This document shows, piece after piece, positions 1 to 32,001 of a stretch of DNA of 64,000 bases (positions are counted from its first letter, which is position 1; every line of letters begins with the position of its first letter). The DNA lies in IMG/VR virus record IMGVR_UViG_2548876947_000004. One strand, given 5' to 3'. Source of the stretch: a virus (Duplodnaviria > Heunggongvirae > Uroviricota > Caudoviricetes). A program made the translations under genes and the position numbers. The notes below the pieces were generated by a model. That model did no database searches, was not told where the DNA came from, and saw only the letters and a program-made list of their open reading frames with translations.

Positions 1-207
1 TGGCAGAACCGCATTAAATTTACACTGGACCATAACTTCAGCCTTACCAGCGTCAAATTTGCGGATGAATTGCTTGAGCAGAACTCTGATATTGATAGTG
101 AAGATGTAGCGCAGCGACTGGACGCAGATTTCTTCCTGTTGACCAGTGAAATTTCGTGCCTGGTTGATGCTCTGGTAAATGCCCTTGGTGGAGAGGCTAA
201 GCAGTGA
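1..207 (+). CDS. 3' end of upstream gene (hypothetical; position of hrdC in P1 by memory), partial
   Basis: Frame 1 is open from window start to TGA at 205-207, overlapping the dmt GTG start (GTGA). No motif recognised. Confidence 0.45.
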   Translation, partial: WQNRIKFTLDHNFSLTSVKFADELLEQNSDIDSEDVAQRLDADFFLLTSEISCLVDALVNALGGEAKQ

Positions 208-3200
208 AAGAGCTGTGCTATGGATCTGTTTGCAGTGGAATTGAAGCTGCGAGTATTGCTTGGGAACCTTTGGGTATGCGTCCGGCCTGGTTTGCTGAAA
301 TTGAGCCTTTTCCATCTGCCGTTCTTGCGCACCGTTGGCCTCATGTCGCCAATCTTGGCGACATGACAAAACTTGCCAAAAAAGTCCTGGCAGGGGAAAT
401 CGAATCCCCTGATGTGCTGGTGGGAGGGACACCATGTTTTGCCGCGGGCCATATGGTTCTTTGTAAAAATGGTTATAAACCAATAGAAGATGTTTGCCCA
501 GGCGATTACGTAGTCAGTCATCTCGGGCGGTTACAACAAGTAAAAAGAGTTGGTTCAAAAATAGCTAATACGGGGTTACTTAATGCCGTTGGGCAGCCTT
601 TAGGTATAAGAACAACCAATGACCATCCCTTCCTGGCGGTTCGGTGGAAAGCCCAAAACACCCGGAAAAATGGCACATATTTTAAGAGAGAGTTGTTGTC
701 TGAACCGGAATGGCGAGCAGCATGTGATATGCCGGGATATCAATGGTGTGCTCTAACTAATTTCAATATTGCATCTCCAGATATTTGTTCTCGGTTCTTG
801 TCTGAAGAACAGGCTATGTATCTTGCGGGCGCTTATGTTGGCGATGGATATATTAGGAGATGGAGAGGTAAATCTAAGAAGGCGGTTGTTTTTGGCATAA
901 ATTGCCAGAAATTGAGAAAGTTTCATTGCCGCATACCAGAAAACATATTTTCCGTGGCAAGCGAAATCCGAGGGAGCATCAAAGTAACCTTGAATGATAC
1001 GTGTTATGCCAATTGGCTTAATGAACATTTTGGCGAGTTAAGCCATGCTAAGCGTATCCCTGCATGGGTGATGTCGCATCCATTGCGTCATGTGTTTTTA
1101 CAAGGCTATCTTGATACTGATGGGACACCAAGTGGTAAAGCGGGATTTAGAATTAATAGTGTTAGTCCTGCGCTTGCTTGGGGCGTTGCGGAGTTGTCAC
1201 AGACTTGTGGTTATGTTTCTTCGGTCAGCTTTATTGAAGTTGAGCCCAAAAAAGTGATTGAGGATCGCGTGGTAAATCAACGGAATTATTATCAGGTAAC
1301 AATCTGCCCGCAGAAATTGTCACGTAAATCAAGATTGGCTCATGGAATGCTTTTACGAACAGTCAAAGAGTTTAAATCGGTAGGCCTAGATACTGTATAC
1401 AACATAGAAGTCGAAGGTGATCATTCCTATATCCTCAATGGTGCGGTGGTCCATAACTGTCAGGCATTCAGTATCGCTGGATTACGTGGTGGGCTTGATG
1501 ATGAGCGTGGCGCGCTAACTTTAAAGTATGTGGAGCTTGCAAATGCAATTGACGACAAACGGGCTGAGTCATTTCTCAAACCAGCCGTTATCGTCTGGGA
1601 AAATGTCCCAGGAGTCTTGTCATCGGCAGATAACGCCTTCGGATGTTTCCTTGCCGGATTGGCTGGAGAAGATGCGCCATTCGAACCAGGTGATCGACCT
1701 GAATCAGGAAAAAGTAACGCGTTCTGGCGGTGGGATGTCAAAACCGGTTGCCATGCTCCAAAGTGGCCGCAGTGTGGTTGTATTTATGGACCGCAGCGAA
1801 AAGTGGCCTGGAGAATCCTTGATGCCCAATACTTCGGAGTGGCACAACGACGCCGACGCGTGTTTGTTGTCGCAAGTGCTCGAACAGACCTCGATCCCGC
1901 AACGGTACTTTTTGAGTTCGAAGGCGTGCGCCGGAATATTGCGCCGAGCCGAAAAAAGAAGGAAATCGCTTCCGCCATTATTGCAAATGGCGCTGCAATC
2001 AGTGGCGAAAGCCTAAATCCATGCCTACACGCTGACATGCCACCCGGTATGAAATCGACGAAAGCCGTAAACGCTTTCAGGATGGCAGCATTTGGGGAAT
2101 ATATTGACGATGAAACCGCATCGACAGTAAAGGCAAGAGATTTTAAAAATGCCACTGATCTTGCCGTTTTTAGCAGCACAGGAGCAGGTTTTTGGTCAGA
2201 AGGGCATGGTACATTGCGGGCACGTGAGCAAGAAAGCCATGAGCATCTTGTTACATTGGCTTTTCCTGAGCGTATAAGCGGTACACAACATGCTGCAACT
2301 AAGAATACTTCACCATCTCTAATGGCTAAAAATCCAACAGCTGTTTGCTATGAAGTAAGAAACGCAGAAGTAGCTGTCCGCCGTCTTACCCCTGTCGAAT
2401 GTGAAAGGCTGCAAGGTTTTCCTGATGGGCATACGTTGATCCCTACGGAAAAGCGTAAAAAAGTTAATTCAGATGAACTGGCATATCTTCGCAATCACTA
2501 TCCAGATTTAAGCGAAGAAGAGGCCGCGATGCTTGCAGCTGACGGACCGCGTTACAAAGCGATCGGCAATAGTATGGCGATACCAGTAATGTGCTGGATT
2601 GGCGATCGGATTACTAAGGCCGTATGCCGGCAGAAAGAAGGAAGTGAAACAAAAGAGCGAAAAGTTAAACCAGCGGCAGAATTCGAACGGTCCATATTCA
2701 AATGGGCTGGTGGAAAATTTGGTGTTCTGGAACAAATCTTTCGCTATTTGCCAGAAGGGAAGCGCCTGATTGAACCTTTCGTTGGTGGCGGAGCTGTCTT
2801 CATGAATGCCGGATACCAGGAAAATCTGCTAAATGATGTGAATGCTGACCTGATTAACTTTTACAAGACTCTGCAACGCGAGGCGCATTCACTTATCACT
2901 CTGGCACATCGTTTCTTCCTGGACTACAACACCCAGGAGGGATTCCTGGCAGTACGGAATGCGTTTAACAAACAAGTCTATGATGATTTACATCGCGCAG
3001 CGGCGTTTTTGTTCCTGAACCGACATTGTTTTAATGGATTGACGCGCTACAACCAGGCCGGTGAGTTCAATGTCGGTTATGGGAAGTATAAAACTCCGTA
3101 TTTCCCATTACAGGAGATGGAAGCCTTCCTCGGTGCGGAAGGGCGGTCTGAGTTTGTATGCGGTGATTTTGCAGCAGTGATTGAAGCTGCCGGAGAAGGA

Positions 3201-3491
3201 GATGTCATCTTTTGCGATCCGCCGTATGAACCGCTCCCCAATACAGAGGGGTTCACGAACTATTCCGGTCATGACTTTAAGTTTGAAGAGCAAAAACGCC
3301 TGGTGTCTCTGTTGACGGATGCTCATCGCCGAGGTGCAAAGGTACTCATTACTAACAGTGGCGCGCCAAACATCAGAGAGCTTTATCAGGACAGTGGCTT
3401 CAGAGTGGAACCTCTCTTTGCCAGACGTTCTGTGTCTTGTAAGGGAGACACTCGTGGTGTTGCTCATGACGTTATGGCAATATTGCTCTAA
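204..3491 (+). CDS. dmt: Bifunctional DNA methyltransferase (N-terminal C5-cytosine MTase fused to C-terminal Dam-like N6-adenine MTase), interrupted by an intein
   Basis: C5-MTase motifs: GGTPC...QAFSIAG (PCQ split by intein), ENVPG, QRRRRVFVV, GNS. Dam-like motifs: KWAGGK, FVGGGAV, DPPY. GTG start. Extein parts sum to 754 aa. Confidence 0.9.
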   Translation: MKELCYGSVCSGIEAASIAWEPLGMRPAWFAEIEPFPSAVLAHRWPHVANLGDMTKLAKKVLAGEIESPDVLVGGTPCFAAGHMVLCKNGYKPIEDVCPGDYVVSHLGRLQQVKRVGSKIANTGLLNAVGQPLGIRTTNDHPFLAVRWKAQNTRKNGTYFKRELLSEPEWRAACDMPGYQWCALTNFNIASPDICSRFLSEEQAMYLAGAYVGDGYIRRWRGKSKKAVVFGINCQKLRKFHCRIPENIFSVASEIRGSIKVTLNDTCYANWLNEHFGELSHAKRIPAWVMSHPLRHVFLQGYLDTDGTPSGKAGFRINSVSPALAWGVAELSQTCGYVSSVSFIEVEPKKVIEDRVVNQRNYYQVTICPQKLSRKSRLAHGMLLRTVKEFKSVGLDTVYNIEVEGDHSYILNGAVVHNCQAFSIAGLRGGLDDERGALTLKYVELANAIDDKRAESFLKPAVIVWENVPGVLSSADNAFGCFLAGLAGEDAPFEPGDRPESGKSNAFWRWDVKTGCHAPKWPQCGCIYGPQRKVAWRILDAQYFGVAQRRRRVFVVASARTDLDPATVLFEFEGVRRNIAPSRKKKEIASAIIANGAAISGESLNPCLHADMPPGMKSTKAVNAFRMAAFGEYIDDETASTVKARDFKNATDLAVFSSTGAGFWSEGHGTLRAREQESHEHLVTLAFPERISGTQHAATKNTSPSLMAKNPTAVCYEVRNAEVAVRRLTPVECERLQGFPDGHTLIPTEKRKKVNSDELAYLRNHYPDLSEEEAAMLAADGPRYKAIGNSMAIPVMCWIGDRITKAVCRQKEGSETKERKVKPAAEFERSIFKWAGGKFGVLEQIFRYLPEGKRLIEPFVGGGAVFMNAGYQENLLNDVNADLINFYKTLQREAHSLITLAHRFFLDYNTQEGFLAVRNAFNKQVYDDLHRAAAFLFLNRHCFNGLTRYNQAGEFNVGYGKYKTPYFPLQEMEAFLGAEGRSEFVCGDFAAVIEAAGEGDVIFCDPPYEPLPNTEGFTNYSGHDFKFEEQKRLVSLLTDAHRRGAKVLITNSGAPNIRELYQDSGFRVEPLFARRSVSCKGDTRGVAHDVMAILL
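435..1457 (+). mobile_element. Intein (341 aa) with LAGLIDADG homing-endonuclease domain, in frame within dmt
   Basis: Starts CFAAGHMVL (Hint block A), TTNDHPF (block B), LAGLIDADG-type YLAGAYVGDGY and FLQGYLDTDGT, ends VVHN followed by +1 Cys; splicing would restore GGTP-CQAFS. Confidence 0.85.
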
Positions 3492-3509
3492 TAAATTTAT
3501 TAGTGTAAT
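3482..3509. promoter_or_regulatory. C1 repressor operator pair (overlapping inverted copies) spanning the dmt stop codon
   Basis: 3482-3498 ATTGCTCTAATAAATTT is 17/17 to the P1 C1 operator consensus; 3493-3509 is a 15/17 inverted copy. Confidence 0.7.
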
Positions 3510-3675
3510 ATCGCCTCAATGAATCGTGATTTATAGAGCGATTTAGCTGTTAGCCGCGACAGGCGCGGCGGCAAGTATGGCGGGGTAGTGACTCCTTCCC
3601 CCTCATGACGCCGAGTTGCCAGGTTGACCATACGCCTAAGTGGCAACACCGAAGTGCGTTACGAGCTTCCAGTTT

Positions 3676-3701
3676 GCCCATCTTCGGGTGGGCGTTTTTT
3701 T
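3676..3701 (+). terminator. Rho-independent terminator
   Basis: 7-bp GC-rich stem (GCCCATC/GGTGGGC) with TTCG loop followed by GTTTTTTT. Confidence 0.6.
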
Positions 3702-4166
3702 CAGGGTTTTCGTCATGGTTAGCGACTTTGCGGCGGTTTAGAAACTGACCATTAAAGTAAATGCAAACGATGATCTGATGATGGTAGCGGCCTAAGAAGC
3801 CAGATGCCACGGGGTATGAGTCGTCACCCGTCAAAAAATCGACCGCAGAGTGTCCCCGTCTGTGTATTAGGGAACGGGGAGGCACAACAGGTAAGGGCGC
3901 TGGTGTGATTAACCAGATGAACGAGAAGGGGCCATCTGTTGGTCAGCGTCCTTTCCTGTTGCGTCTTCTTTTCAGCGTAACAGCGGTGCTTAACAGCACT
4001 TTGGGTACAGTTCCACGAATTTACGGGTATATCCCGTCATGCTGAAGGCGCTAATCACGCTGGAAGCCAGGGTTATGCATCCCCTGTTACCGAATTGCAG
4101 TCAGGGCGCGGTGCGCCGAAAAGCATACGGAGGTGGAAGCCCTCGCCGGAGACGTACCCGGCAAGT

Positions 4167-4242
4167 GATGGTGTAGCTCAGTGGTTAGAGCGGTTGACTG
4201 TTAATCAACGGGTCGATGGTTCAAATCCATCCACCATCGCCA
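4167..4242 (+). tRNA. tRNA-Asn (anticodon GUU), with CCA
   Basis: Acceptor stem GATGGTG/CACCATC, D-arm AGCTCAGTGGTTAGAGC, anticodon loop CTGTTAA, T-loop GGTTCAAATCC, 3' GCCA. Confidence 0.9.
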
Positions 4243-4244
4243 AT

Positions 4245-4320
4245 GCCGGTTTAGCTCAGTTGGTAGAGCGCCTGCCTTGTAAGCAGGATGTCAGCGGTTC
4301 GAGTCCGTTAACCGGCACCA
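4245..4320 (+). tRNA. tRNA-Thr (anticodon UGU), with CCA
   Basis: Acceptor stem GCCGGTT/AACCGGC, anticodon stem-loop CCTGC-CTTGTAA-GCAGG, T-loop GGTTCGAGTCC, 3' ACCA. Starts 2 nt after tRNA-Asn. Confidence 0.9.
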
Positions 4321-4569
4321 ACACAACAGGTAAGGGTATTTTGCGACGTCGGAGATCGCCGTGCTTGGCAGAGGGTTCGAATCCCTACGAAGTACCCTTA
4401 CCGTTGTGATGAAGTGCAGCTCTTTGAAGCAACCAGAAGATAAGCATCTGGCTTCACAACATAAACCGCAGGAACGACCAATAAACGGTAGTCCGTATGG
4501 AGAACACCCCGTTGAGGAAGAGGCCTGGCCGGAACCGTAACCGGCACTACAACGTTGAGAACACTGGCG

Positions 4570-4594
4570 TAACGGGGTCATATCCCAATCTACG
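4570..4594 (+). repeat. Direct repeat copy 1 (GTAACGGGGTCATATCCCAATCTAC)
   Basis: Exact 25-nt match to 4848-4872; both followed within about 60 nt by GTTGCG and GGTGAATGC. Function unknown. Confidence 0.6.
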
Positions 4595-4847
4595 AATAAA
4601 TGTTGCGTTGCAGCGTGACAACCAGTGTTCTCAACATTGTGGTGAATGCACAGGCTGATGTGCCGCAACTACAGTAGCGCGCGCTTTGTGGGGCTTGCTA
4701 CAACCCTGTGTCGGAGTTCAGCACCGACCATCACAGTTTGATTCTCTGGCATGAGCATAACGCTGAAATAAGTCCAGTCTGGTGCGGTCTGATCACCTGC
4801 CGTTAGCTCCACGAAACGGAGCACGTAACAGGTAAGAGCATTCTCCT

Positions 4848-4872
4848 GTAACGGGGTCATATCCCAATCTAC
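4848..4872 (+). repeat. Direct repeat copy 2 (GTAACGGGGTCATATCCCAATCTAC)
   Basis: Exact 25-nt match to 4570-4594 in the ORF-poor region after the tRNA pair. Confidence 0.6.
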
Positions 4873-5055
4873 AGGTCCACCAAGAATGCTCTTTCCGTTG
4901 CGGTGAATGCGGCTAAGCGCATGCGGGGAAATGGTTATATCTGTCCATTATTTCTCCTTGTTTCCCCGCCCACGGTGGATAACCAGCCAAAGGACACTGG
5001 GAGGCACCCGGCACCGCAATCTAATAAATATGTCACTTTTATTGAGGGATAACCA

Positions 5056-5490
5056 ATGTTCGGTAAATTGTTCGGCAAGAAAGTTGCTTCTGCAAAAGTA
5101 GAGCTGAAAAAAGTTGAGAATCGCGATCTGATGGAGGCCATTATCGGTGGCTGTTTGTTGGTGTCTGCCGCTGATGGTGAAATCGAAAAAGAAGAAACAG
5201 CGAAACTTGATCAGCTTGTCCGCTCTAATCCGCGTCTTAGTCATTTTGGTAACGAAATTACTGCAACAATTACCCGCTTTACCGAGCAACTGGAAGCTGG
5301 CTTCCGTGTTGGTCGCATGAATATCCTTCGCGAAATTGAAGATATCAAAAACGATCCAAAAGAAGCGGAAGAAGTATTCGTTAACATGCTGACAATTGCA
5401 GAAGCGGACGGTGAAATCGAGCCAGCAGAACACAAAGTACTGGAAGAAGTAGGCCGTCGTTTAGGTCTTCGTGTGGAAGATTATCTGTAA
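5056..5490 (+). CDS. tciA: TerB-like tellurite-resistance family protein
   Basis: 144 aa with paired ADGE-I-E motifs typical of TerB; located where P1 has tciA (memory). Confidence 0.75.
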   Translation: MFGKLFGKKVASAKVELKKVENRDLMEAIIGGCLLVSAADGEIEKEETAKLDQLVRSNPRLSHFGNEITATITRFTEQLEAGFRVGRMNILREIEDIKNDPKEAEEVFVNMLTIAEADGEIEPAEHKVLEEVGRRLGLRVEDYL

Positions 5491-5764: not shown

Positions 5765-5840
5765 GGCCCCTTAGCTCAGTGGTTAGAGCTGGCGACTCAT
5801 AATCGCACGGTCACCGGTTCAAGTCCGGTAGGGGCCACCA
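5765..5840 (+). tRNA. tRNA with anticodon CAU (Ile2-like, ileX-type; could be Met), with CCA
   Basis: Near-identical in acceptor, D and anticodon arms to the enterobacterial ileX tRNA as recalled; anticodon loop CTCATAA; acceptor GGCCCCT/AGGGGCC. Confidence 0.85.
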
Positions 5841-31464: not shown

Positions 31465-32001
31465 TGTTTTTTAGCTGCCGATGTTACATTGAACCTGACC
31501 TCTTGCGCCTTGAGGCATTTTCGGTTTATGCTTATCAGGCACCTCATTAAAACGGGTGCCGGGATTGGCCTCCCGCTTAAGTCTAAGGCGATACAGACGC
31601 CGCTCGCGTCTTTTTTTTGTATCGGCGTACACGCACACCTCTACAATGGTGGGCTGTATGGGGCTACCTTCGGGTAGGCTGGTTACCTTGGACGCCAGTA
31701 AGGCCAACTCCGTACAGTCCACCGCCAGCAAGATTGGTCTCTTCTGCGGTGGTTACATACCAACGTCTAAGGAGGCTGCCAATATGGCTACTATCCCTAC
31801 CCCAACTCATCCTGAATTTATCTGGCGCTTTTACTCCTGCCAAAAACGTCACTATCACTTCGTTATTGCACCAACAGAAGATGAGGCCCGCTCTCAGCTT
31901 CCTGACGCCCCATGTATTTTCTCTGCCCGTTTTTCCACTGATTCACGCAATTCTCTCAGTTACTGGTGCCTCCCTGTTAACGCTTCTGCTCAGGAGGGAC
32001 T

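Follow-up and report, generated by a model that had tools for sequence, protein, structure and literature searches.

The 64,000-nucleotide (nt) sequence analyzed in this work (IMG/VR virus record IMGVR_UViG_2548876947_000004, hereafter the window) corresponds to a P1-like phage-plasmid, with positions 3400-5100 displaying 97% identity to phage P1. Positions 3499-5055 constitute the untranslated head, of approximately 1.5 kb, of the C1-repressed ban operon, and we consider it probable that this interval is a mosaic island of structured RNA modules encoded on the + strand, rather than a set of protein genes. The island includes an RNA located at 3704-3885 (+ strand), designated here as tag RNA, which resembles the mRNA-like half of transfer-messenger RNA (tmRNA) and is devoid of its tRNA-like domain (TLD); an action of this RNA on host trans-translation forms part of the overall explanation, and taken by itself is a more tentative proposal. 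An earlier note on this DNA had described the interval as poor in open reading frames (ORFs) and rich in repeats and recurring motifs, and the tag RNA was absent from it. The tRNAs, the operator and a dicF-like label of this interval are already known, and the tmRNA-like tag RNA appears to be previously undescribed. The tmRNA-SmpB pair constitutes the main ribosome-rescue and protein-tagging system of bacteria, and affects the growth of several phages.

The tag RNA and its relation to tmRNA

The tag RNA was recognized by sub-threshold matches to the Rfam tmRNA models (RF00023 and related ones) and by R1, a covariance model built from phage copies only. It carries at 3763-3795 (+ strand) an ssrA-like tag frame, GCA AAC GAT GAT CTG ATG ATG GTA GCG GCC TAA, encoding ANDDLMMVAA and a stop, which is also the tag reported by ARAGORN at a relaxed threshold; for comparison, the Escherichia coli ssrA tag is ANDENYALAA. 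The length of this frame is invariant in 15 lineages, all of which (15/15) display ten sense codons closed by TAA or TGA, in many cases with a second stop next to it. The tags found in other elements include ANDNTFLAVA (Vi01), ANSDEFLMAA, ANDSEVLMAA, ANDNVFLAVA (Felixounavirus AYO145A, Sf14), ANDAQFLAVA (phiEa104), ANDDVVLMAA (TR2, S5), ANEEMYLAVA (swi2, DP01) and ANDNEFKVAA (Bue1), as well as ANDNQYLAVA, ANEEVYLAVA and ANEDTYLAVA in the SSU5 group, with a common pattern of AN, acidic or polar residues, hydrophobic residues and a terminal A. Codons 1, 2 and 10 displayed synonymous changes only, and divergence within the frame was 0.46 at third positions versus 0.25-0.27 at first and second positions (~1.8-fold). 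An alternative +2 frame starting at an overlapping AUG was rejected, being unconserved and devoid of a Shine-Dalgarno sequence.

Two pseudoknots follow the tag frame on the + strand, namely pseudoknot a at 3809-3843 (S1 3809-3814/3826-3831; S2 3820-3823/3840-3843), identified by covariation in alignment A2, and pseudoknot b at 3844-3879 (S1 3844-3849/3859-3864; S2 3854-3858/3875-3879), in which S1 was 100% paired and S2 displayed compensatory changes in 5/5 pairs. In the MAFFT alignment, 90% of the pseudoknot cells were paired, versus 27-48% when the partner strand was slid; compensatory changes were found in 16 of the 20 pairs, and none of 500 shuffles reached the observed score. Further, G:U was the commonest pair at two positions, a preference that indicates an RNA of the + strand. 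In this window, pseudoknot a has a G:A mismatch at 3814/3826, a position occupied by G:C in reference P1.

Four Rfam tmRNA models matched the tag RNA of the window and those of 8 other phage loci below threshold (13-31 bits in the other loci; thresholds of 47-84), including in the window a permuted-tmRNA match at 3690-3795 (24.1 bits) that rests on the tag frame; at the Rfam gathering threshold no tmRNA was found in the window. Conversely, R1 recognized a single site in the window (93 bits; next best, 9) and also the tag region of E. coli ssrA (locus L019, 271-323) with 22.7 bits, corresponding to an E-value of 0.0036 in 87 kb and of 2.9e-5 in the locus alone. As the covariance models match in both directions, the tag RNA is either derived from the mRNA-like domain of tmRNA or convergent on it, descent being much more likely. 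The tag RNA shares with tmRNA a resume codon GCA after an A-rich UAA-NU context, a ten-codon tag that starts with ANDx and ends in A, a stop within a hairpin loop, and H-type pseudoknots directly 3' of the tag. It differs from tmRNA in being devoid of the acceptor stem, the G3:U70 pair, a T-arm pairing with the 5' end and CCA; in addition, no PK1 equivalent was identified in it, its length is ~180 nt versus 363 nt for E. coli tmRNA, and it forms the leader of tRNA operons in phage and plasmid DNA.

The search for homologues of the tag RNA yielded 749 phage records, a minimum figure, along with 773 SSU5-type plasmids. The carriers belong to Ackermannviridae, Felixounavirus and relatives, Schitoviridae, siphophages of ~47 kb, and the SSU5-like and P1-like elements, and in all cases the homologue lies in ORF-free DNA, usually beside tRNA genes. 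In most of the records opened it is unannotated, and a few place a hypothetical protein over it. Of two pattern scans of IMG/VR for the tag frame, one was empty and the other yielded seven coincidental matches, all within ORFs; the tag RNA seems confined to cultured enterobacterial phages and plasmids. Signals for its transcription are found in several of these elements: in swi2 and AYO145A a near-consensus sigma-70 promoter (10-11 of 12 positions) would set the RNA start at AGUUUUCG of the conserved 5' motif, in S5 a terminator lies ~200 nt past the tag, and in the Schitoviridae (TR2, S5) the tag RNA is a stand-alone unit ended by a terminator. The terminator after the S5 tag RNA (locus L028, 635-654; GCCCATCTCCCTTGATGGGC followed by T7) resembles the one that stands before the tag RNA in P1 (3675-3694; GCCCATCTTCGGGTGGGC followed by T7), and an earlier tandem or permuted state of the cassette is possible.

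To our knowledge, the phage tmRNA genes reported so far are either whole or TLD-only. Half-molecules of tmRNA do exist in nature and in phages, as exemplified by the TLD-only forms of mycobacteriophage DS6A and jakobid mitochondria and by the two-piece tmRNAs encoded by permuted genes; however, these keep the tRNA-like half, the TLD-only forms having lost the template, whereas the tag RNA keeps the template and is devoid of the tRNA-like half. A survey of RefSeq plasmids and 543 bacterial viruses (2012-13) found ssrA only in eight mycobacteriophages, and named Bacillus phage G and the TLD-only DS6A from outside its dataset (PMC4131195). The same work describes that TLD-only tmRNA inhibits tmRNA, perhaps by titration of SmpB (PMC4131195), and the Felix O1 genome paper describes tRNAs and pseudo-tRNAs only (PMC3185647). 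Our literature search on tmRNA-like or phage-encoded tmRNA in the phages studied here returned only citations of ARAGORN or unrelated full-length phage tmRNAs, and no published template-only relative of tmRNA was found, the 2004 P1 genome paper being outside that search. Search tools anchored on the TLD could not detect a template-only RNA, and its recognition would allow the re-annotation of a long-standing blank in the genomes of P1, the SSU5/pHCM2/pMT1-type elements, Vi01, and the Felix O1-like and N4-like phages.

Proposed action on trans-translation

The 5' end of the tag RNA carries a conserved motif, GGGTTTTCGTC (3704-3714, + strand), whose core GUUUUCG(U) is the only invariant part of the 5' region across lineages. 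This core is the reverse complement of ACGAAAAC, located in the codons GAC GAA AAC of the host ssrA tag; ACGAAAAC occurs within the tag frame in 80 of the 120 ssrA genes with an E. coli-type 5' end, mostly from Enterobacterales, and for 10 of 12 lineages the most favorable duplex is predicted on the host tag region. Therefore, as a hypothesis based on this complementarity, the 5' motif could pair with host tmRNA. Regarding the encoded peptide, ALAA is the C-terminus recognized by ClpXP. The phage tags keep the N-terminal AND and an aromatic or hydrophobic residue at encoded position 6, and end in LAVA, VAA or MAA, never in ALAA; among the 120 host tags, none ends in AVA.

Taking these features together, the following course of events is proposed. 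Inactivation of C1 would cause Pban, the promoter of the ban operon, to fire, and the transcripts running past the downstream terminator would constitute a long precursor, to be cut by host RNases into tRNAs and stable small RNAs; the tRNA ends would be generated by RNase P and 3' trimming, and the ~20-bp hairpins described below would probably be substrates of RNase III or RNase E. The released tag RNA would keep those template parts visible to the ribosome and SmpB, i.e., the resume context, the ten-codon frame, the stop in a hairpin loop and the downstream pseudoknots. It might then act as a decoy that titrates factors binding the template region, pair with host tmRNA via the 5' GUUUUCGU motif, or supply an altered C-terminal tag (...LAVA or ...VAA) instead of the ClpXP degron ...ALAA. 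An action of the tag RNA on host trans-translation, either by interference or by hijacking, is the function favored here, at a probability that we rate at clearly less than even. The more general proposal, that enterobacterial phages of at least six unrelated groups carry an RNA corresponding to the template half of tmRNA that reprograms or blocks host trans-translation in infection, is tentative and on balance rather unlikely. If true, it would represent a new class of viral counter-measure against ribosome rescue and proteolytic tagging, a conserved and widely transferred template-only derivative of tmRNA being a means by which phages could influence ribosome rescue or what becomes of tagged proteins. 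As P1 is genetically tractable and the promoter is controlled by C1, the hypothesis is directly testable.

Several findings weigh against this proposal. The seed complementarity to host tmRNA rests on a single motif of 8-10 nt, the predicted energies of the duplexes between the 5' motif and ssrA are not better than those of shuffles, and in Vi01 the motif is paired inside the tag RNA itself. The P1 tag RNA lies directly behind a strong terminator and is devoid of its own promoter, so that its level may be low; because no promoter was found at the tag RNA in P1, its expression there would depend on read-through of the terminator at 3701. Further, in the P1-like IncY plasmid NZ_CP148508.1 (locus L009, 1140-2500) the 5' motif and the tag frame are separated by an IS605-type tnpB insertion (window ~3741/3742), and pseudoknot a and the tRNA genes are also absent; the tag RNA is therefore dispensable for plasmid maintenance. 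Finally, a systematic search across lineages for a T-arm with a downstream strand able to pair with the conserved 5' end yielded no consistent case, and the complete 47.6-kb genome of swi2 displayed no TLD-like Rfam match and no second tmRNA-like one; a tag RNA with no tRNA-like domain offers no evident means of decoding its conserved frame.

Such decoding would be accounted for if the tag RNA were the coding piece of a split, two-piece tmRNA, in which a separate tRNA-like RNA supplies the acceptor and T-arm and a phage tag is added to stalled proteins. Two-piece tmRNAs occur in three bacterial lineages, and the candidate partners are a T-arm-bearing hairpin module, a neighboring tRNA-like gene, or the host tmRNA. 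The coding-type constraint in the tag frame is what this alternative predicts, and T-arm modules or tRNA-like RNAs do lie near the tag RNA, namely the hairpin U2 of P1 (4322-4408), modules in swi2 and Bue1, an RNA upstream of the tag RNA in phiEa104 and a tRNA-like gene downstream in AYO145A; in swi2, in addition, ARAGORN pairs GGGCACA with the acceptor end of a tRNA-Met. However, no partner is conserved across lineages, the T-arm of U2 is missing in P7 and the SSU5-like elements, the tag RNAs of TR2 and S5 are stand-alone and terminator-ended, the complete swi2 genome holds no TLD-like match, and the candidate acceptor pairings in P1 are devoid of G3:U70 or CCA. We consider a two-piece arrangement improbable.

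The search for tRNA-like halves yielded additional observations and rejected candidates. Neither the window nor any of 17 related loci yielded a tmRNA call by ARAGORN at default settings; with lowered thresholds the tag was found and the tRNA-like halves were unconvincing, with 13 overlapping tmRNAs called at 60%. U2 was rejected both as a decayed tRNA and as the tRNA-like domain of the tag RNA, its T-arm being missing in P7, Ro157c2YLVW and the SSU5-like elements. It was also rejected as an acceptor partner: the 5' GGGUUUUCGU could pair with ACGAAGUACCC just past the U2 T-arm, but without G3:U70 and CCA, and this pairing would compete with a hairpin of -39.7 kcal/mol. The sole tmRNA called by ARAGORN in swi2 (locus L152, 12047-12421) reuses the acceptor and T-arm of tRNA-Met and predicts a non-conserved tag; it starts at GGGCACA right behind the tag RNA, where a G3:U70 pair is possible, and was treated as coincidental. 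The same treatment was given to a weak tRNA-like gene in AYO145A (locus L014, 1665-1743) with G3:U70, A73 and CCA, located directly past the tag RNA. On the basis of the swi2 and AYO145A arrangements, a tag RNA tethered 5' of a tRNA-like domain is possible.

Just upstream of the tag-RNA promoter in phiEa104 (locus L017, 1254-1413) lies a tRNA-like RNA of 160 nt (GGGUGAUUCUG...GGUUCGAAUCCUUAAUCACUCGCCA), with a tmRNA-like 5' GAUUCUG and an encoded CCA, which was recognized by no tool. Vi01 harbors an ORF-free stretch of ~2.4 kb (locus L011, 1230-3620) containing the tag RNA, several long hairpins and two T-arm-bearing tRNA-like modules, and suggests a much larger repertoire of phage RNA modules.

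Hairpin modules and the mosaic structure of the interval

Four paralogous hairpins of 80-105 nt, U1-U4, all of them on the + strand, are bounded by the recurring decamer AACAGGTAAG on one side and by the motif GTTG(C/T)G on the other. In U1, U2 and U3, AACAGGTAAG opens the 5' arm, and the 3' arm ends in CCTT(T/A)CC followed by GTTG(C/T)G; U4 displays the same design with a different stem sequence. U1 (3883-3966; z = -4.39) contains the first copy of AACAGGTAAG, and U2 (4322-4408; z = -5.31) contains the second, with a T-arm-like GGGTTCGAATCCC inside that is not a tRNA according to ARAGORN and Rfam. U4 (4545-4650; repeats I1 and D2; z = -6.73) encloses the first copy of a 25-nt repeat, and U3 (4824-4902; repeats I3 and D2; z = -7.37) carries the third copy of AACAGGTAAG together with the second 25-nt copy, the repeat being a duplicated inner stem-loop common to U4 and U3. 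None of 200 shuffles was as stable as the native hairpins. Within the 64-kb window the family is confined to this interval, one further scan match being AT-rich and unrelated.

All of the repeats and motifs listed in the earlier note were recovered here, with corrections of 1-2 nt to its coordinates in three places. The exact 25-nt direct repeat, GTAACGGGGTCATATCCCAATCTAC, is located at 4569-4593 (previously 4570-4594) and 4848-4872, and zero shuffles of the window contained any match at ≤3 mismatches. The decamer described in three copies does occur at 3886, 4325 and 4827 (the latter two previously 4323 and 4828), which are its only copies in 64 kb, with 0.07 expected. An inverted repeat described as 10 bp is actually 13 nt long (4329-4341/4390-4402; 92% complementary), and encloses GGGTTCGAATCCC at 4373-4385; the statement that this T-loop-like element is not a canonical tRNA agrees with the absence of a call there by ARAGORN or by the Rfam tRNA model (E ≤ 10). 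Likewise, the related hairpin reported near 4022 corresponds to ACGGGTATATCCCGT at 4023-4037. This hairpin lies in a spacer (3967-4166, + strand) that also contains CTGTTACCGAA (4084-4094); the fold z of the spacer is only -1.5, and the same two motifs were seen by eye in Schitoviridae phage TR2 (locus L015, ~1270-1340). Further downstream, a conserved post-hairpin segment (4640-4745, + strand) consisting of GGTGAATGC, a small hairpin and ...CACCGACCATCACA is homologous to positions 1744-1847 of the swi2 locus L016 and to an E. albertii plasmid (locus L007), and is thermodynamically ordinary (z 0.2).

Conservation of the repeats in related phages, on which the earlier interpretation had been made to depend, was found both in P1-like elements and in other phage groups. 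The hairpin design, consisting of (R)YAAC, a stem of 13-15 bp, a variable interior and GTTRY, recurs in P1-like and SSU5-like phage-plasmids, Ackermannviridae (Vi01, Bue1, fGh-Ecl02), Schitoviridae (TR2, S5) and siphophages of ~47 kb (DP01, swi2). In the arms of 25 distinct modules, compensatory changes on both sides were found at 17 of the 20 stem positions, with a covariation score of 0.62 versus 0.23 in shuffles (0/500 shuffles reached 0.62), and 34-53% of cells paired in the slid-partner controls. As a point against the strength of this result, the module set was gathered with a pairing filter and the arms were trimmed by hand, with one bulged base removed, which inflates the percentage of paired cells and leaves the compensatory pattern unaffected. 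In 25 of 29 modules the + (tRNA) strand folded more stably than the opposite one, with a mean difference of 4.4 kcal/mol (Wilcoxon p = 1.8e-4), and U:G was the commonest state at one stem position; therefore, the hairpins would act in the transcript that also carries the tRNAs. This family of hairpins appears to be previously undescribed, and phage tRNA islands appear to share a repertoire of structured RNA modules that includes long hairpins and STnc100-like elements.

The predicted stems of ~18-20 bp between transcript units are compatible with RNase III processing sites, and the repeats may serve as processing signals, as had been suggested. RNase III processing hairpins are known in phage polycistronic transcripts, e.g., the T7 early RNA, and stable RNAs are encoded in the T4 tRNA cluster. 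The U-type hairpins resemble these systems in being repeated stems of ~20 bp, with a conserved internal mismatch, located between the units of a tRNA-bearing phage transcript; they differ in that their interiors are long, variable and in some cases T-arm-like, the family is common to unrelated phages, and cleavage is a prediction.

The modules between and within the hairpins vary in close relatives. A tRNA-Tyr lies between the Asn and Thr genes in Ro157c2YLVW, a tRNA-Ser(UGA) lies between U4 and U3 in D6 and P7, an Arg(UCU) gene replaces Asn in one plasmid, and one IncY plasmid is devoid of tRNA genes. Some relatives carry a 66-nt module in place of U2 or next to it, the module at the U2 position in P7, Ro157c2YLVW and the SSU5-like plasmids is devoid of the T-arm, and an indel of ~194 bp was found in the interval among close relatives.

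This variation could also be expected if the hairpins acted mainly as DNA boundary or recombination sites, similar to integron attC or to PeSL elements, that swap tRNA and small RNA cassettes, RNA folding being incidental. The resemblance to attC extends to imperfect hairpins of 45-130 nt with an AAC...GTT base, ends similar to R boxes (..ACAAC / GTTGT..), a variable center and a frequent bulged base, and to the flanking of exchangeable cassettes (the Tyr, Ser and Arg tRNAs, the 66-nt module versus U2, and the ~194 bp indel); in addition, the same modules are found in unrelated phage groups. However, the hairpin ends, (C)ACAAC and GTTGTGA, depart from the attC ends RYYYAAC and GTTRRRY, the core GTTGTGA not fitting GTTRRRY, and no integron integrase is annotated in the P1 region or in the complete genome of swi2. 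Moreover, attC sites use the bottom strand, whereas in the modules the G:U pairs favor folding of the transcribed + strand, which is the one that folds better. Homologous recombination at any conserved sequence would yield the same mosaicism. A primary role as DNA sites is regarded as unlikely.

A functionless origin, in which the region consists of decaying debris of tRNA and tmRNA genes left by illegitimate recombination, was judged very unlikely. In its favor, U2 and the STnc100-like piece at the end of the interval have the appearance of partial tRNAs, tRNA arrays of phages often contain pseudo-tRNAs, the tag RNA is disrupted in one plasmid, and pseudoknot a contains a mismatch in this window. 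Nevertheless, compensatory substitutions preserve the pseudoknots and hairpin stems in lineages sharing only ~65-72% identity, the length, stop and synonymous-only positions of the tag frame are maintained, and in other phages the tag RNA has promoters and terminators of its own on its flanks. Structured RNAs rather than protein genes, as the earlier note had proposed, are supported by the predicted fold z-scores, the stem covariation, the + strand stability and the lack of conservation of the antisense ORFs plp and upl described below. No Rfam family other than tRNA reached threshold in the interval, a gathering-mode scan included. A Y-RNA-like element (YrlA) was considered and discarded, the sole match (19.9 bits) sitting over the true tRNAs.

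Operon context, flanking sequences and antisense ORFs

At least 80% of the queried stretch was present in 18 phage records and 452 plasmids. The features of the P1 reference NC_005856 that mapped here were the end of dmt, P1ban/P2ban, Op72, a dicF-like region, trnA (Asn), trnT (Thr), plp, upl and tciA-tciB-tciC-trnI-ban. At the head of the interval lie the Pban promoters P1ban/P2ban (3466-3511, + strand) together with the divalent C1 operator Op72 (Oban a/b, 3482-3509) according to the NC_005856 annotation, with ATTGCTCTAATAAATTT at 3482-3498 and the inverted repeat I2 at 3476-3515. The tRNA-Asn (GUU; 4167-4242) and tRNA-Thr (UGU; 4245-4320) genes, both on the + strand and both already pointed out in the earlier note, were called by ARAGORN and by Rfam (RF00005; 76 and 75 bits, respectively).

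The intrinsic terminator (3675-3701, + strand) consists of a GC-rich stem of 7-8 bp with a UUCG loop and U7, and would end a Pban leader RNA of ~190 nt (3512-3701). A terminator had been predicted about 180 nt after an operator-controlled site; its stem was located here at 3675-3694, followed by T7, ~190 nt past Op72. This terminator is kept in D6 despite a different upstream context. What the P1 annotation labels a dicF-like region (window ~3606-3707) corresponds to this terminator-ended leader, a link absent from the earlier note. Upstream of the terminator, positions 3554-3651 (+ strand), which overlap the dicF-like region, share 82% identity over 100 nt with L151 463-559, a homologous stretch that immediately precedes dicF (L151 583-635) in the lambdoid prophage Qin. 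The ~50 nt at the DicF position (3652-3701, with the terminator at the end) are unrelated to DicF, and the DicF Rfam model gave no match at E ≤ 10.

At the other end, an STnc100-like element at 4899-5018 (+ strand), with an outer helix UGCGGUG/CACCGCA, forms the 5' leader of tciA. Its match to RF02076 (30.6 bits; model positions 31-147 of 206) lies under the family gathering score of 47, so that membership in the family is not established, a further point against part of the proposed composition; a relationship is likely, given the 81% identity between the D6 orthologue of 4899-5018 and the Qin dicF-dicB spacer. STnc100 is a prophage small RNA related to PasD (bioRxiv 10.64898/2026.05.13.724894). 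No STnc100 match was found in the modules of other phages at E ≤ 0.5; one of the Vi01 tRNA-like modules shares the UGCGGUG/CACCGCA closing helix with the P1 element. Judging by both flanks, which match sequence around dicF and the dicF-dicB spacer, the P1 leader resembles a lambdoid locus of the dicF-dicB type that has received an insertion of ~1.2 kb of RNA modules. It differs from the Qin locus in the unrelated sequence at the DicF position, in the ~1.2 kb of tag RNA, tRNAs and hairpins between the flanks, and in its first downstream ORF, which is tciA and not dicB. This relation of the flanks to the Qin dicF-dicB locus appears to be previously undescribed.

The description of the interval as ORF-poor holds for the + strand; on the minus strand, mechanical ORFs of 125, 63 and 111 aa were found, two of which are annotated in P1 as plp (4291-4668, 125 aa) and upl (4669-4860, 63 aa), together covering 4291-4860 (- strand). 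The plp ORF has a TTG start and runs antisense to part of tRNA-Thr. Module replacement has split it in OP279344 and P7, an in-frame stop interrupts it in Ro157c2YLVW, and SJ46 carries a truncated form; no Pfam family matched plp at E ≤ 0.1. No match to upl was found in D6, P7 or SJ46, and its one Pfam match, CdiA_helical, was sub-threshold (E 0.024; 14.9 bits versus a cut-off of 27). Nearly all of the matching plasmid records list nothing at this stretch. Because they are split, stopped or absent in relatives and have no protein family support, plp and upl have probably arisen by chance as ORFs opposite structured RNA, and their status as P1 genes is questioned. That the minus strand encodes a real lipoprotein Plp and a real Upl, the repeats being features of their coding sequences, can hardly be credited: both ORFs are intact in this window and in reference P1, but they are unconserved in relatives and reach no Pfam family above cut-off, and the stem covariation accounts for the conservation.

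Further observations were made elsewhere in the window. A third tRNA gene is located at 5765-5840 (+ strand) with anticodon CAU, which ARAGORN assigns to Met and the P1 record to tRNA-Ile2; the latter would need lysidine modification. Within the P1 immI region, at 31539-31729 (+ strand), an Rfam isrK match (60.8 bits) adjoins a C4 antisense RNA (75.9 bits). Upstream of the interval, the dmt ORF (204-3491, + strand) encodes 1095 aa, as compared with 754 aa in reference P1, and its translation contains an intein-like insert that splits the C5-methyltransferase PCQ motif (..GGTPC|FAAGHMV...VVHN|CQAFSIAGL..); the dmt gene of Ro157c2YLVW covers the same 3288 nt.

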